A DNA stretch of 64,000 nucleotides from an uncultured Alphaproteobacteria bacterium (GTDB taxonomy: Bacteria > Pseudomonadota > Alphaproteobacteria > CAAHEQ01 > UBA3637). Of the stretch, positions 24,685 to 29,911 are shown in pieces (positions within the stretch are counted from its first letter, which is position 1; the number at the start of each line of letters is the position of its first letter). The notes beneath the pieces were generated by a model. It ran no database searches. It worked only from the letters and a program-made list of their open reading frames with translations, and was not told the DNA's origin. A program made the translations under genes and the position numbers. The stretch lies in contig CALXWZ010000006.1 in assembly GCA_944392555.1 (NCBI GenBank), positions 5,543 through 69,542 of the forward strand, read 5' to 3'.

Positions 24685-26799
24685 TTATTCTTTCAAAACG
24701 CAATAATTACCGTCCAATGTGCGTTCTTCATAACACTCCATACAGGCATCGGTTATATTCTGAACATTCACACGTTCTTCGGTATCGCACGGATAGCATT
24801 TATTATCTCTGCCTCTTAACGGGGCATCCGCCGGGCATTTCGGAACGCAGTAGTTATTGTATTTATTACGAGTATCGGGGCAACGTTCACAGCCGTCGTG
24901 AGTAAGACTGGAAACATCTATATTCTGTTCTTCATCACAAGAATAACAATCTCCATAATAACCTGTAAATGTTCCCTCTGGACAAGGTATAGAGCAGTAT
25001 AAATTAGCCCTTCCGCTTGCTACTCGATTGGAACAAATTGTGGCACATGATTCTGTTCCGGAAATATAAATAGGATTAGGATCTAAACAGCTGTAACACA
25101 TACCATCATCACCACGAATCTGATTAGTCGGACAGTCTAAAATACAATAACGATCTATTTGCCGTCGGTTTTGACACTGATCACAACCCATATGTGTCAC
25201 ACCATATACATTGATATTTGCTTCTATTTTACAAGAGACACACTCACCCAGATTTGTGGTAAATGATCCTGTTGAACAAGGAATCGAACAGTAACGATTG
25301 TGCTCTCCGTTTGCAATCCTATTCGAACATAGTAAAGAACACATATTCAAAGCATTATCCATAGGTATCGGATAGGGGTATTCACAATCATAACACTTTC
25401 CGTCATCTCCGCGAATTTGATTTACAGGGCAATCTAATATACAATAGGAACCTATTTGTTGACGATTTTTGCAACTTTCACAACCTCCCTGTTTCACCCT
25501 ATAAACATTTATATTTTCTGGGGTATTACACGAAAAGCACTGTCCGTCTGTGTTGGTAAAATATCCCAACTCACACGGAAGTGAGCAGTACTGATTTAAT
25601 GCACCATTTGCCACTCGATTTGGACACGTTTGTGTGCACCTATTCACTGCATCGCTCATTGCTATCGGATCAGTATACTTACAATCGTAACATTTCCCAT
25701 CATCTCCACGAATTTCTCCCTTGCATTTTAAGACGCATTTATTATTCCATATTTCTCTGTTTGGGCAAGCGTTGCAGTTTTCATTCACGCCCGTAACGTC
25801 AACCCCGTTTGCTTCCTCGCAAGTATAGCAATTCCCGTTTTTATCAATCAACGGTTTAAACCACGGGCAACATTGGTCGCCTGCCACATTACAACAATAG
25901 CCGTTCATTGTGGACGGACAACAATACGGCCCCGCCCACCTATCACTCGTGCAACAGACTTGACTCCCCGTTAAAATATCTTGCCTGCACCGTTCATTAC
26001 TCCCGCAGATTGAGACACATACACCCTCTGCCGAACATCTTGCACATTTGCTCGCACAATCGTCATCATTATGGCATTCTTGATATGGCAACATATCGTC
26101 TTCCAAGTGCGCCCCGTATTGGAAGATCATCACGGCTGTTGTTGTCGGTTCCCCTGCCTCTGTTAACCCGTCGCAGATACTTGTATTCCCATCGTATGCC
26201 AAATCGCCCACTTTCATAATAATCGGCAACGTCCATTCTGTCCGCAATATCATCTTGCATTCAGCTACCGGCACATTCTGCACTTCTATTTCAAAGTATT
26301 TCGGATCCTCTAACCAATACGCCGTTATCGGATACCCGAGACTTGTATATTCCCCCATTTCCATGACGATTTCGGGATTCTCGGGGTCGGTTGTATTATT
26401 ATCCGCAATCGGGGCGATTGCATACGCCCGCAAATTAATTTCATGCACCGTTTCATTTGCCCGATACATCGTCATCGCATACCGATAACCCATCATTCCC
26501 GCAACCGATAGCACACCGATCACCGCTAACACGCCCAGCATTTCTACCATACTCCGCCCGTATTCGGCCAAGCGCGCACCTCTTAATCTACGCACACCCT
26601 TTAATCCGCTCAATTCATCCAATCCATGTTGCGTTTGTGAATCTGCTAAACATTCCGCTTTTTGATTACTTTTCAAGCACGTCAGACTTATTTGATGCGC
26701 TGATTTTTTCTCTTGTTTTGCGCGATTCGCCTCAAATACACTGTTTTTTACTTTTTTTGCATAAAAAGAAGCCACGTTAACTATTTGTTTTATATTCAT
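24685..26799 (-). CDS. Prepilin-like N-terminus + pilin-sized module + cysteine-rich CXXC tandem-repeat domain (candidate modular pilin or surface adhesin)
   Basis: G/RSMVEMLGVLAVIGVLSVAG (Gly-1, Glu+5, hydrophobic helix) follows a leader of about 80 aa. The C-terminal ~470 aa hold about 60 Cys (hand count) in 99-aa repeats with CXXC pairs. Start set at ATG 26799 (GGGAGA 6 nt upstream); the track start is 26814. Confidence 0.8.
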   Translation of the reverse strand: MNIKQIVNVASFYAKKVKNSVFEANRAKQEKKSAHQISLTCLKSNQKAECLADSQTQHGLDELSGLKGVRRLRGARLAEYGRSMVEMLGVLAVIGVLSVAGMMGYRYAMTMYRANETVHEINLRAYAIAPIADNNTTDPENPEIVMEMGEYTSLGYPITAYWLEDPKYFEIEVQNVPVAECKMILRTEWTLPIIMKVGDLAYDGNTSICDGLTEAGEPTTTAVMIFQYGAHLEDDMLPYQECHNDDDCASKCARCSAEGVCVSICGSNERCRQDILTGSQVCCTSDRWAGPYCCPSTMNGYCCNVAGDQCCPWFKPLIDKNGNCYTCEEANGVDVTGVNENCNACPNREIWNNKCVLKCKGEIRGDDGKCYDCKYTDPIAMSDAVNRCTQTCPNRVANGALNQYCSLPCELGYFTNTDGQCFSCNTPENINVYRVKQGGCESCKNRQQIGSYCILDCPVNQIRGDDGKCYDCEYPYPIPMDNALNMCSLLCSNRIANGEHNRYCSIPCSTGSFTTNLGECVSCKIEANINVYGVTHMGCDQCQNRRQIDRYCILDCPTNQIRGDDGMCYSCLDPNPIYISGTESCATICSNRVASGRANLYCSIPCPEGTFTGYYGDCYSCDEEQNIDVSSLTHDGCERCPDTRNKYNNYCVPKCPADAPLRGRDNKCYPCDTEERVNVQNITDACMECYEERTLDGNYCVLKE
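24700..25790 (-). repeat. About 3.7 diverged tandem coding repeats of 297 bp (99 aa) inside the cysteine-rich gene
   Basis: Landmark CGAAT of the RGDDG codons recurs at 25115, 25412 and 25709 (exact 297-bp spacing). Protein units YCILDCPVNQIRGDDGKCYDC / YCILDCPTNQIRGDDGMCYSC and so on. Confidence 0.85.
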
Positions 26800-26813
26800 T
26801 TTCTTTCTCCCCA

Positions 26814-26831
26814 TTCTTCATAAACGTCCGT
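26814..26831. repeat. Left arm of a perfect 18-bp inverted repeat (TTCTTCATAAACGTCCGT)
   Basis: Exact reverse complement of 26977-26994. Lies in the 5' leader/start region of the cysteine-rich gene. Confidence 0.95.
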
Positions 26832-26925
26832 TTATGTAGAGGGAATAAAGCACGAAATCGTCCCATAAAAAGAAATCTCAAAAAATTATTATTTTACAAT
26901 AAGATAATCATATTTAAATTTTTAC

Positions 26926-26953
26926 TTGATTATTTTAAAAATACCCTTATAAT
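26926..26953 (+). promoter_or_regulatory. Near-consensus sigma70-type promoter TTGATT-16 nt-TATAAT inside the inverted-repeat-bounded segment
   Basis: -35 at 26926-26931 and -10 at 26948-26953. The same TTGATT -35 is seen upstream of rpmE, aspS and the 27927 gene. It points away from the cysteine-rich gene. Confidence 0.55.
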
Positions 26954-26976
26954 CCTCTTTATACTATATCATCTAG

Positions 26977-26994
26977 ACGGACGTTTATGAAGAA
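26977..26994. repeat. Right arm of the 18-bp inverted repeat (ACGGACGTTTATGAAGAA)
   Basis: Exact reverse complement of 26814-26831, with a 145-bp spacer between the arms. Confidence 0.95.
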
Positions 26995-27086
26995 AATTTA
27001 AAAGAAATCGTTAATATTTTGTTTTCATCCATAAAAATTTTATCTCTCGAAAAAATAAAAATTTACCTTGCAAAACAATCTCAAAC

Positions 27087-27116
27087 AAAAAAGGGGCTTT
27101 AAAAGCCCCTTTTTTG
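27087..27116. terminator. Bidirectional intrinsic terminator
   Basis: GGGGCT-ttaaa-AGCCCC hairpin flanked by an A-run and a T-run. Lies downstream of minus-strand gene 27141..27776 and downstream of the plus-strand orphan promoter. Confidence 0.7.
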
Positions 27117-27140
27117 TTTATTCATAATCTCAAATCCCTT

Positions 27141-27776
27141 TTACGCTGTTCTGTTTTGCTGTTGTGCCGCCGCAACCATTGTAAGCGAATCCGGTTGTTG
27201 CACGCCCGCATGTTCGCTGGCATGTTGAGCTAATGTCATTTTTGCATTCGGTGTCTGCGGTGCTGCTTGTTGTTGGGATTCCGCCGCACGCGCCTCCACA
27301 ATATCATCAGCCTCCTGACTACCTGTTGTCGATTGAATAACACGATCCAGCAAACCGGAACTATTAGCAACTTTTAACAAGAAACCGGCCCAACCACCAC
27401 ATGTGGATGACATAATTCCCGTACCGAATTTCGTTAAAGCAGCAGTTTGCTTTGCAGGCCCGTAAGAACCCCATGCGGCAAAGGCTTGCATCTTTAAATT
27501 CCCGATAAGATCACCATCTTTTAACTTTGATTCATCTTTGCGATACTCTTCGGCACCGATGATATCTCTCTGGTCCACACTCGCATACTTTGTTCTTTTA
27601 TCAAAATTCTCTTTCTTCTCCTGCCCCTCTTTTTGGATATCTTCAATATCTTGGCGCGTAACTTTTTGACCCGTTTGTTTACTTAAATCACCTAACATTT
27701 GCTCCATTCGAACATCATCTAATTGAATGGCTGTGTTTTCATTCATACTTTTCATCAACGTGCTGTTTTGAACCAT
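27141..27776 (-). CDS. Hypothetical protein (charged N-terminus, Q/A-rich C-terminus)
   Basis: 211-aa ORF followed by a terminator. No recognisable motif. Confidence 0.6.
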   Translation of the reverse strand: MVQNSTLMKSMNENTAIQLDDVRMEQMLGDLSKQTGQKVTRQDIEDIQKEGQEKKENFDKRTKYASVDQRDIIGAEEYRKDESKLKDGDLIGNLKMQAFAAWGSYGPAKQTAALTKFGTGIMSSTCGGWAGFLLKVANSSGLLDRVIQSTTGSQEADDIVEARAAESQQQAAPQTPNAKMTLAQHASEHAGVQQPDSLTMVAAAQQQNRTA

Positions 27777-27926: not shown

Positions 27927-29195
27927 GTGAGTATCGAGCGTATTTGTCAAAGATTTCAAGAGGTTTATAATTTAAAAGATAGTAAAGGAACTGCTATCGG
28001 GCATGATTTTTTCAAATTCAGCAGTGATCCCGATATCCGCGCCGAAGAAATGGCTGACTTTAAAGGCTTTCAGGTTTGGAAAAATCCCGGCGAAATTATG
28101 GGTTGGACGAAACACTTGAACTGGATAGGATCCTCTGCTCCTGCTGCCAGCCGTTTAGCCCGTAAAGTAGCAATAGATACAACAAACCTCACGCCTGAGT
28201 CTTGGAAATTGTTACTTGATAAATGCGCAACTTTATATCAAACGGAAAGCGAAGAAGACCATTTTGTTGCCGATTTGATTCTATTTCGCATTGCACTAAA
28301 TCGAGACAAAGGCGAGGCTAATACCTATTGGCAAAATTCTTCACCGCTCTATTCCATCACATTATTGAGTTATCTCTCTGAATTTGGTCATATCTACCCC
28401 GATCCAAAGGGGCAAGAATATTTAAAATTTCTGCAAGAGGAATTGTCTTCCGGCAAGTTAGCGATTACAAAGCAATCCGAGCAAAAACAAGAAACAACAA
28501 ATCAAAAACAACGGCAAATATCAGCCATTAAAACCGAAAATGCCTCAAATGAAGAAATTTTGGCAAATAATAAAGAAATTTTAGCTAAACTCAACACGCT
28601 TCAAAAAGAAAATCAATCCACTTCCGCCGATAATACTCCAAACGGAGTTAATCCAGCAAACCAAGCGCTTGATGAACAATCTCTTTCCGTATTAAAGCAA
28701 AACTTAAAGCAGGCGCAATCAACACTGATTACAAAAGATGACGTTAAAAAGATTCCGGGAATTCAACAAGCCGTTCAATCTCTGACTAATACAACCGCAT
28801 CGCAAGCAACCATCAATGAAGATCCGAAAGACACGCAAAAGAGCATTCAGCAGGTAGCTGTTGCACAACAACAAGTTGAAGAACAAGAAGGGTTTTGGTC
28901 TAAATGGGGATGGGTTATCGGTATTGTTGCAACGGCGGGTCTCGGCTTTTTGGCTTGGTACTTTGTTAAAAAATATAAGGATAAAGCTGATGAAAGCGCG
29001 GCTCAATCCAGCGCATTGAAAGATGAAATAACTTCTTTACAAGACGAAATCAACGATTTATCCAATTCTGACGGTTCATCAACAAATACCAACACGGGAA
29101 ACGACGATACGCTTGGGAATAATGCCGTTATTGTGAATACCGATACCATCAATCAAATCAACGAAATTATTTCAAACAGCAATCAAAGAACTTAA
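27927..29195 (+). CDS. Hypothetical membrane protein with Q/N/T-rich coiled-coil region and a single TM near the C-terminus
   Basis: GTG start with AAAGGGG 6 nt upstream. TM segment WGWVIGIVATAGLGFLAWYFV. Low-complexity region QKQETTNQKQRQ... and a heptad-like tail (ALKDEITSLQDEINDL). Confidence 0.6.
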   Translation: MSIERICQRFQEVYNLKDSKGTAIGHDFFKFSSDPDIRAEEMADFKGFQVWKNPGEIMGWTKHLNWIGSSAPAASRLARKVAIDTTNLTPESWKLLLDKCATLYQTESEEDHFVADLILFRIALNRDKGEANTYWQNSSPLYSITLLSYLSEFGHIYPDPKGQEYLKFLQEELSSGKLAITKQSEQKQETTNQKQRQISAIKTENASNEEILANNKEILAKLNTLQKENQSTSADNTPNGVNPANQALDEQSLSVLKQNLKQAQSTLITKDDVKKIPGIQQAVQSLTNTTASQATINEDPKDTQKSIQQVAVAQQQVEEQEGFWSKWGWVIGIVATAGLGFLAWYFVKKYKDKADESAAQSSALKDEITSLQDEINDLSNSDGSSTNTNTGNDDTLGNNAVIVNTDTINQINEIISNSNQRT

Positions 29196-29251: not shown

Positions 29252-29911
29252 ATGTCAACAAAAGGCGAAAATTCAACAAATCATACACAATCTTCACAAC
29301 ATAAAGCACAAAATGAGAGCCCAAAATCAAACCATTCATCTTTTGGGCGTAATACACTCCTTGCCTTAGGGGGATTATTTGCACTCGGTGGTTCGCTTTT
29401 CCATGTTATTCAATATGCGTCTCGGAGCAAAAACGAATCAACGAGAATCGGATTGGTTGTAGGAGATTATCTTGCAAAAACACAGGCAGAAAACACAGCG
29501 CTTACACAACGGACACACGAAGCCTCTCAAAACCGCACCTCTTATGAAAAAGAATGTAAGGATATGGCTCTTATCGTTGTGCAACTCGCTGACAAATTCA
29601 AACAAAAATCACCCGAACAAATTATTGACAGAGCCTCTTTTTTATACAAAAAGCAACAAAAAGGGAACCCAAAAGCCGATATTATTTTAGAGGATATGCA
29701 AGCTATTAAACATAATTTTACGGGAACAACAAAAAATCTCAGAAATCTGATGACCTGCTATCACACGTCACCCGAAATACCGTTTTCCGACCACTTAACG
29801 GATTCTGCCGTTGTGCGAGACAGAATTTATCGCTATGAAACAAAAGTGCGCCAATACTTATTGAAAGAATATAACATTATGCAAAAAAGCATGCTTCAAA
29901 ACAGTAAATAA
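29252..29911 (+). CDS. Hypothetical membrane-anchored protein
   Basis: S/Q/N/H-rich N-terminus, a TM segment LLALGGLFALGGSLFHVIQY, then a domain of about 150 aa of unknown family. Confidence 0.6.
   Translation: MSTKGENSTNHTQSSQHKAQNESPKSNHSSFGRNTLLALGGLFALGGSLFHVIQYASRSKNESTRIGLVVGDYLAKTQAENTALTQRTHEASQNRTSYEKECKDMALIVVQLADKFKQKSPEQIIDRASFLYKKQQKGNPKADIILEDMQAIKHNFTGTTKNLRNLMTCYHTSPEIPFSDHLTDSAVVRDRIYRYETKVRQYLLKEYNIMQKSMLQNSK

Follow-up and report, generated by a model that had tools for sequence, protein, structure and literature searches.

In Mycoplasma penetrans, most of the 38 mpl (P35) lipoprotein genes are each preceded by an invertible promoter of their own (Horino et al., 2003, as related in PMC2268961), and in Bacteroides fragilis a single serine recombinase, Mpi, acts on 13 invertible regions that include seven capsular polysaccharide promoters (PMC4747536). 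The Mpi-type repeats quoted in PMC8375218 read ARACGTTCGTN, together with GTTCGTTTAA in B. intestinalis. Here we describe an element in a 64,000-nucleotide stretch of DNA from an uncultured Alphaproteobacteria bacterium (contig CALXWZ010000006.1, positions 5,543 to 69,542; the whole stretch is referred to as the window), in which a short inverted repeat encloses a promoter beside the gene of a cysteine-rich, pilin-like protein. An earlier annotation of this DNA (the original prediction) had proposed an invertible promoter, i.e., an inverton, caught in the OFF orientation. On the basis of the comparisons presented below, we consider that the region is probably a promoter inversion switch, active or recently active, and that it is present here in the OFF state. 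In our search of the literature, we came across no report of invertons in Alphaproteobacteria that control families of pilin-like genes.

The features of the locus, as predicted from the sequence, are as follows.

24685-26799, minus strand: the controlled gene, 704 amino acids; its product begins with some 80 leader residues, followed by a prepilin-like G/RSMVE motif and a long helix near the N-terminus, and further contains a beta head and repeats rich in Cys.

26807-26812, minus strand: Shine-Dalgarno sequence (SD) GGGGAG, 7 nt before the ATG at 26799 and kept in paralogs.

26815-26840: predicted gene-proximal recombination site, 12-2-12, with its central TC at 26827-26828; the left arm of the original prediction corresponds to its outer half plus core.

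26832-26976: predicted invertible segment, 145 bp, between the cores GTCCGT and ACGGAC.

26838-26845, minus strand: anti-Shine-Dalgarno sequence, UUCCCUCU as read on the gene strand, located within the invertible segment at its proximal end and predicted to pair with the SD in the OFF orientation only.

26926-26953, plus strand: sigma-70-type promoter TTGATT-16-TATAAT (10/12), pointing away from the gene.

26963-26991, minus strand: weaker candidate promoter TTCATA-17-TATAGT (9/12) with a TG extended -10, directed towards the gene and straddling the distal arm.

26968-26993: predicted gene-distal recombination site, with its central GA at 26980-26981, inverted relative to the proximal site and with a degenerate inner half-site.

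27083-27119: strong bidirectional intrinsic terminator, consisting of a perfect hairpin of 18 bp that is flanked by a T run on either side (z -4.1).

The inverted repeat that brackets the 145 bp was found exactly where it had been reported. It is perfect over 18 nt: the left arm (26814-26831) reads TTCTTCATAAACGTCCGT, the right arm (26977-26994) is the exact reverse complement of this sequence, and a repeat-finding tool stretched the pair of arms to 21 nt at 95% identity. Among perfect inverted repeats with a spacing of 40-400 nt it is the longest in the 64 kb, the runner-up measuring 13 nt, and none of 100 dinucleotide-preserving shuffles reached 18 nt (mean maximum 13, largest 17). When up to 3 mismatches were allowed, TTCTTCATAAACGTCCGT occurred in the window as these two copies only, with 0.07 expected by chance. 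Two further properties had escaped the original prediction. One is that the left arm belongs to a palindrome of 26 bp, TCTTCATAAACG-TC-CGTTTATGTAGA (26815-26840), the right arm being part of a partly palindromic partner, ATCATCTAGACG-GA-CGTTTATGAAGA (26968-26993). The other is that the perfect 18-mer is peculiar to the window copy, with relatives pairing at about 14 of 17 positions. The resulting site layout is of about 26 bp, with two inverted 12-bp half-sites around a 2-bp centre (12-TC-12 and 12-GA-12), and the asymmetric central dinucleotide (TC vs. GA) is inverted between the proximal and distal sites in every copy. If the crossover took place at these central dinucleotides, the exchanged DNA would be 26829-26979. 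A tyrosine-type reading of the same layout (10-6-10, or more generally a spacer of 6-8 bp) would also be compatible.

The promoter of the original prediction was recovered at the same position and on the same strand, and it is the best promoter-like site predicted between the two arms. It points towards a terminator, as had been stated, which takes the form of the 18-bp hairpin listed above. When the segment was flipped in silico, the -10 element moved to 26860-26855, 55 nt before the ATG at 26799, in agreement with the earlier arithmetic.

As regards other copies of the 18-mer and an invertase, both of which the original prediction had suggested looking for in the genome, the 18-mer was found six times in one public genome, whereas no invertase was found in the approximately 525 kb that were searched. 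The genome in question, the metagenome-assembled genome (MAG) “uncultured Alphaproteobacteria bacterium BRZ_DT__bin56”, is the nearest reference genome, and each of its six 18-mers lies inside a conserved upstream module of about 240 nt. A protein search with the first 200 residues of the window gene identified 16 paralogs in BRZ_DT__bin56. By a DNA search with the promoter block, 16 modules of this kind (class 1) were identified, all of them in BRZ_DT__bin56 and none in any other species representative, and all 16 sit upstream of paralogs of the window gene. The interior promoter pattern TTGATTATTYTRAAAATACCYTTATAAT likewise matched 16 loci in genome contigs, all from one MAG, as well as one short metagenome contig (in the OFF orientation); in viral contigs it had no match. 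Additional module copies were obtained from ENA assemblies (L054-L062; L numbers denote loci), giving a total of 25 contig-level copies. Similar places were collapsed in the locus look-ups, and replicate samples of one locus are mostly hidden as a result. Exact-protein look-ups with the window gene (704- and 709-amino-acid forms, P0001) and with P0002 returned no record, which left no means of comparing the locus of the window itself between samples.

The repeat proved to be conserved in these relatives, with core and half-sites kept in all copies. The arms and the GTCCGT/ACGGAC cores are common to all modules, and across 19 modules arm and core show little or no variation. The interior measures exactly 145 nt in 16 of the 17 modules measured, the block CTTGATTATTTTAAAAATACCTTTATAAT is nearly invariant across modules, and the 28-nt promoter block is almost invariant. 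Modules are conserved at 85-93% and interiors are 82-93% identical, whereas the N-terminal 200 amino acids of the paralogs drop to 44-58% identity, and the modules are kept between genomes in which the flanking sequences share no more than about 81-82% nucleotide identity. Also conserved is TGATATAGT, with the gene-directed TGnTATAGT. The distal outer half-site, by contrast, is variable: it reads CTCTACAAAAAG in most copies (about 14/17 complementarity), CTCTACATAAAC in L024 and L025 (perfect over 17 nt) and TTCTTCATAAAC in the window (perfect over 18 nt), where it repeats the outer half-site of the proximal site without a mismatch. At L061 and L062 (1290-1500), from a locus orthologous to L021, the module is degenerate, with arms and -10 retained and the -35 half of the interior replaced by sequence that resembles a duplicated SD/start region.

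A second class of module lies upstream of two further paralogs, L016 (2740-2922) and L027 (2720-2907). Its repeat, CGTCTCAAAAAAACGGTCGTTT, is perfect over 22 nt and forms 12-2-12 sites with a GT/AC centre and the same AAACG/CGTTT half-site core as class 1; a conserved TTGACT-17-TA(A/G)TAT is apparently directed away from the gene. More distant pilin-like relatives (L028-L053) are mostly without perfect inverted repeats of at least 12 nt upstream, and the class-1 module would therefore be lineage-specific. At L053 (2770-2920), upstream of a pilin-like gene in a gut/rumen Alphaproteobacteria MAG, there is a 17-nt repeat, GTACGTTTAATTGCAAC, with a gap of 110 nt. Loci L154 and L155 (1240-1500), from other gut/rumen MAGs, carry AAAAAAAGG-GA-CG... 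and AAAAAAAGG-TC-CC..., 127 nt apart. The analogous paired sites at these three loci suggest that a wider family of switches may exist.

The interior promoter is directed away from the gene in 15 of the 16 BRZ_DT__bin56 modules and in all eight copies from other assemblies. In the remaining module, L026 (= L144), the promoter faces the gene; the 145 bp are reverse-complemented, and 52 nt separate the -10 from the ATG that follows it. Read in the sense of the gene, L026 runs ...CTCTACAAAAAG-GTCCGT-TTATGTAGAGAGG...TTGATT-16-TATAAT...ATCATCTAA-ACGGAA...ATG, and both of its junctions match exactly those predicted for strand exchange inside the core. Its interior is 88% identical to the reference interior when reverse-complemented and 61% identical when compared directly, the corresponding figures for the remaining modules being 57-62% (flipped) and 86-88% (direct).

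The locus of L026 was also found in a different assembly, as L056, which was reached through P0037, the protein cluster closest to L026 (91% identical). Both have fabF upstream and dus downstream, and they represent one chromosomal locus. Identity amounts to 92.6% and 95.9% for the two flanks and to about 98% for the mature protein. The 175-nt module, arms included, aligns only in reverse (84.6%), L056 having the orientation of the window. Given the shared flanks and the reversed module, one locus is thus present in both orientations in two related strains. Four other pairs of loci compared across strains had the same orientation in both. Taken together, the module family, the flipped L026 and the opposite orientation at L056 support the original proposal of an inverton caught OFF.

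Some further features were observed at these loci. Leader/5' untranslated region (UTR) types MNIKQIVNLASFYAKK... and MNIKQLVIKLSQSMKSL... are swapped between L026 (2985-3155) and L056 (2985-3203). The contig of L156 (1-22) ends exactly at the inner edge of a class-2 proximal arm (AAACGACCGTTTTTTTGAGACG); this end is an assembly branch point, which could arise either from mixed orientations in the sample or from a repeat shared by paralogs. Contigs also break at or near modules or their genes at L054, L153, L018, L020, L021 and L024.

In the switch that we propose, a recombinase encoded elsewhere would pair the 26-bp sites at 26815-26840 and 26968-26993, and strand exchange in the GTCCGT/ACGGAC core would reversibly flip about 150 bp bearing TTGATT-16-TATAAT, which would be the functional promoter of the gene. 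In the ON orientation, the -10 would lie about 55 nt upstream of the ATG at 26799, giving a short leader with a free SD. In the OFF orientation, the promoter would fire into the terminator at 27083-27119, which would also shield the gene from upstream transcription. The upstream gene on the same strand (27776-27141) terminates at 27083-27119, and the pilin-like gene therefore needs a promoter of its own. In most paralogs a small hairpin with a T-run, made up of the distal arm and its flank, follows the outward promoter by about 30 nt; this hairpin is weak (-9.3 kcal/mol, z -1.8) and is missing from the window.

Predicted folds of the leader RNA pointed to a possible second effect of orientation. 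The OFF gene-strand RNA over the proximal site folds with -17.1 kcal/mol (z -3.6), and in this fold UUCCCUCU (26845-26838) pairs with the SD; the predicted ON leader has -6.1 kcal/mol and leaves the SD free. Across 17 modules, the predicted mean probability that the SD is unpaired was 0.25 in the OFF orientation vs. 0.62 in the in-silico ON orientation, and SD accessibility was predicted to differ by orientation in all 17. Read-through RNA in the OFF state would thus be expected to fold so that UUCCCUCU, brought in by the flipped segment, masks the SD, and a transcript from TTCATA-17-TATAGT would carry the same SD-sequestering leader. Such masking of the ribosome-binding site, if real, would amount to a second lock on the OFF state. 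Comparison with Rfam gave no match above the gathering score; the terminator alone gave weak hits.

With one such switch before each of at least 16 paralogs per genome, and about one of them ON in the consensus assembly, the organism would vary the pilin-like, Cys-rich surface protein that it displays.

A number of findings count against this interpretation. A single orientation is seen in 24 of the 25 contig-level copies, and the evidence on orientation comes from assembled contigs. The ON-junction pattern CCYATTCTWCATAAACGTCCGTYTARATGATATAG had no match in genome contigs, and a pattern one base shorter had none in metagenome contigs, a set from which the organism is nearly absent (one contig). 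The arms are imperfect in most copies (about 14/17). The conserved TGnTATAGT faces the gene in the majority orientation, so the OFF state might be leaky or misassigned. L026 and L056 differ not only in the module but also in the 5'UTR and the first 55-70 codons (the leader type), and the proximal core of L026 reads ACGGAA. The difference between the two is accordingly not a single clean flip, and L026 could represent an old or locked event, or a replacement of the module, instead of a simple inversion.

The search for a recombinase adds to these points. The window was found to contain none, as had been stated originally, either with Pfam on 20 open reading frames (ORFs) of 151-412 amino acids or by tblastn with Hin, gamma-delta resolvase, FimB and XerD. 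In the approximately 525 kb made up of the window and the loci of relatives, tblastn revealed no dedicated recombinase, XerC being the sole match; the search covered a small part of any genome. No serine recombinase (resolvase/invertase domain) was matched in the same 525 kb, and this lowers the claim for an enzyme of the Mpi/Hin type. From the anatomy of the sites, we favor an Mpi- or Hin-like serine invertase that would cut at the central TC/GA. The XerC gene (TIGR02224, 299 bits; L145, 2895-3923) is divergent from priA and lies 3.5 kb from the L014 module. Among the matches listed in a scan of genome contigs with the XerC C-terminus were Xer genes of unrelated Alphaproteobacteria, at 62-77% identity. 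Because it is conserved in this manner, XerC beside priA was judged to be a housekeeping enzyme, though it could conceivably be the invertase.

Part of this evidence would also suit a regulatory module that never inverts, an explanation we regard as unlikely. The palindromes would then be operators for a dimeric transcription factor, perhaps looping the 150 bp, the outward promoter would make a short non-coding RNA, and the fixed TGnTATAGT or another gene-directed promoter would drive the gene, L026 being a rare fixed rearrangement between short inverted repeats. Both sites are indeed palindromic, as operators are, and such a module would be consistent with the near-uniform orientation (24/25), the conservation of TGATATAGT and the failure to find a recombinase in the window and the 525 kb. 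The hairpin and T-run about 30 nt past the outward promoter in most paralogs would permit a transcript of about 50 nt; this hairpin, however, is the weak one described above, which the window lacks. Moreover, operators predict neither an interior flipped between the site centers nor one locus in opposite orientations in two strains, and the asymmetric center, inverted between the sites in every copy, is as found in crossover sites where it defines polarity. The predicted masking of the SD in the majority orientation also speaks against a gene that is driven from a fixed promoter in that orientation.

We attach still less probability to a decayed switch, i.e., a once-active inverton family that was frozen upon loss of its recombinase, with orientation relics spread among paralogs by gene conversion. 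Signs of decay are present, in that most copies have imperfect arms, the proximal core of L026 is mutated to ACGGAA, the -35 half of the promoter is replaced at L061/L062 and L015 is a pseudogene. The recombinase also went undetected in the window and the 525 kb; that search, however, spanned a small part of any genome. Against decay, the arms, core, promoter and 145-bp length have been kept across paralogs and across genomes with flanks about 81-82% identical, which argues for ongoing selection. In addition, a difference in orientation between strains whose flanks are 93-96% identical must be recent, which likewise counts against a frozen switch.

A miniature inverted-repeat transposable element carrying an outward promoter might be suggested by the size of the unit (about 180 bp), its terminal inverted repeats and its occurrence in at least 16 copies per genome. 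This reading is very improbable and was rejected on the fixed position of the unit relative to one gene family: the spacing to the start codon of the paralog is the same in every copy, each copy runs on into conserved 5'UTR and leader-coding sequence, the searches showed no copies in other taxa or apart from such genes, and the boundaries are identical in the flipped copy. An RNA-only reading was rejected on the positional and orientation evidence.

Returning to the inversion switch, the sites may have a second role in the exchange of genes. The window cassette is closest to that of L014, with 94% amino-acid and 91.7% nucleotide identity, and the homology between the two covers 26993-24686, bounded by the outer end of the distal arm on one side and by the stop codon on the other. 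In the reference genome, the upstream flank of the window matches the L013 locus and its downstream flank the L017 locus. As cassette and flanks match different loci, cassettes move or recombine between loci, possibly through the inversion sites themselves. We tentatively suggest, as a possibility well short of probable, that the sites are portable recombination points that move gene cassettes and leader modules between loci in addition to on/off switching. One Mpi-like invertase would then bring about both phase variation and reshuffling of about 18 pilin-like genes, with the RNA-level SD lock as a second layer; such an invertase might possibly be shared with gut Bacteroidales by horizontal transfer. 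Bearing on this suggestion are the exact coincidence of the start of window/L014 homology with the outer end of the distal arm, the match of the flanks to L013 and L017, and the exchange of module plus leader between L026 and L056. Two incomplete sequences were also observed. At L014 (5253-5492), a family gene is followed downstream by a promoterless, Cys-rich fragment of 79 amino acids, possibly a silent cassette, and at L015 (3001-3063) a family member truncated after 20 codons is a pseudogene.

The protein encoded by the window gene matched no Pfam family and had no sequence match in the PDB. At E <= 1e-10 it had 206 homologs; few of these carry a source name, and those that do all derive from Alphaproteobacteria MAGs. 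In 44 homologs, G81, R82, S83 and E86 of the G81-RSMVE86 motif do not vary and at least 90% retain M84; a hydrophobic stretch comes after the motif. Models for the prepilin motif (TIGR02532, N_methyl) remained below threshold, and the leader of the family, with about 55-80 residues before G/RSMVE, is unusually long for a prepilin. The AlphaFold model (predicted local distance difference test score 78.6) begins with about 80 disordered leader residues, continues with a helix of 52 residues and a beta head, and then has hairpin repeats rich in Cys. Most of the top Foldseek matches in the PDB were type IVb pilins (CofA, TcpA, PilS), the matches being weak (E 4e-3 to 0.4, target template modeling score about 0.4). 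Distant relatives bear teneurin-like epidermal growth factor (EGF) domains. The label “pilin-like” is therefore used as a reasonable, not a proven, description of the gene.

Elsewhere in the neighborhood, the ORFs at 27141-27776, 27927-29195 and 29252-29911 belong to no Pfam family. Of these three, the ORF of 422 amino acids has a C-terminal transmembrane segment and low-complexity regions rich in Q, N and T. The ORFs at 27141-27776 and 27927-29195 have counterparts in the reference MAG, where they adjoin L013 and share about 81% of their nucleotides with the window.

The data suggest that such an organism possesses about 18 pilin-like, EGF-like, Cys-rich surface proteins, each with a DNA switch of its own and roughly one of them ON. 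Switching within a repertoire is a classical strategy for evading immunity, phages or the constraints of a niche, and it has been documented mainly in Bacteroidales and mycoplasmas. To our knowledge, the uncultured gut/rumen Alphaproteobacteria concerned are known from metagenome bins only, and we know of no study of their surface biology. The repeat motifs TCTWCAWAAASGTCCGT (class 1) and CGTCTCAAAAAAACGGTCGTTT (class 2) can be used for read-based searches of metagenomes, and an Mpi-like serine invertase provides a testable lead on the recombinase.

How the locus compares with known switches depends on whether architecture or site anatomy is considered. As in fimS (FimB/FimE) and hin/hix, a promoter lies on a short invertible segment beside a pilus or flagellin gene, and in this respect the likeness to fimS drawn in the original prediction holds. 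It does not extend to the sites, whose anatomy and sequence point to a serine invertase of the Mpi/Hin kind and not to FimB/E. The hix sites have a 12-2-12 layout and an A-rich half-site and are of the serine-invertase type. Unlike the modules described here, fimS is a single locus of 314 bp with 9-bp repeats and with its tyrosine recombinases encoded alongside, and the hin gene lies inside its own segment, whereas the present segment is too small to encode anything and occurs at 16 loci or more.

The resemblance to the Mpi regulon lies in the presence of many dispersed promoter invertons with a common repeat consensus, in gut habitat, in the variation of surface structures and in the model of a global invertase. 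The inner half-site and center, AAACGTCCGTTTAT (AAACG-TC-CGTTTAT), agrees with ARACGTTCGTN/GTTCGTTTAA in 12 of 14 positions; of the two positions that differ, one belongs to the central dinucleotide. With ARACGTTCGTN alone, 9 of 10 specified positions match, in what is a post hoc comparison over a short A/T-rich sequence. The two systems differ in the center (TC here vs. TT), in the promoter (sigma-70 -35/-10 elements here vs. the -33/-7 elements of Bacteroides) and in the target, i.e., single genes here vs. long operons. The segments also differ in length, with 145 bp here vs. the 183-186 bp given for the B. intestinalis capsule promoters in PMC8375218, and no homolog of Mpi turned up in the sequence searched here.

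The mpl family shares with the present one the organization of a dispersed multigene family of surface proteins, in which each gene has its own short invertible promoter with short inverted repeats and switches independently, as well as a recombinase acting in trans on many loci, which is what we propose here. For mpl, we know of no description of a second lock by SD masking. The hosts are Mollicutes in one case and Alphaproteobacteria in the other, and the products are lipoproteins as opposed to type IVb-pilin-like Cys-rich proteins. The candidate recombinases of mpl are Xer-like tyrosine enzymes, whereas the sites described here resemble those of serine invertases. By analogy of design, the M. 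penetrans mpl family appears to be the closest counterpart of the pilin-like modules, with the Bacteroides Mpi regulon also near and fimS similar in outline only.

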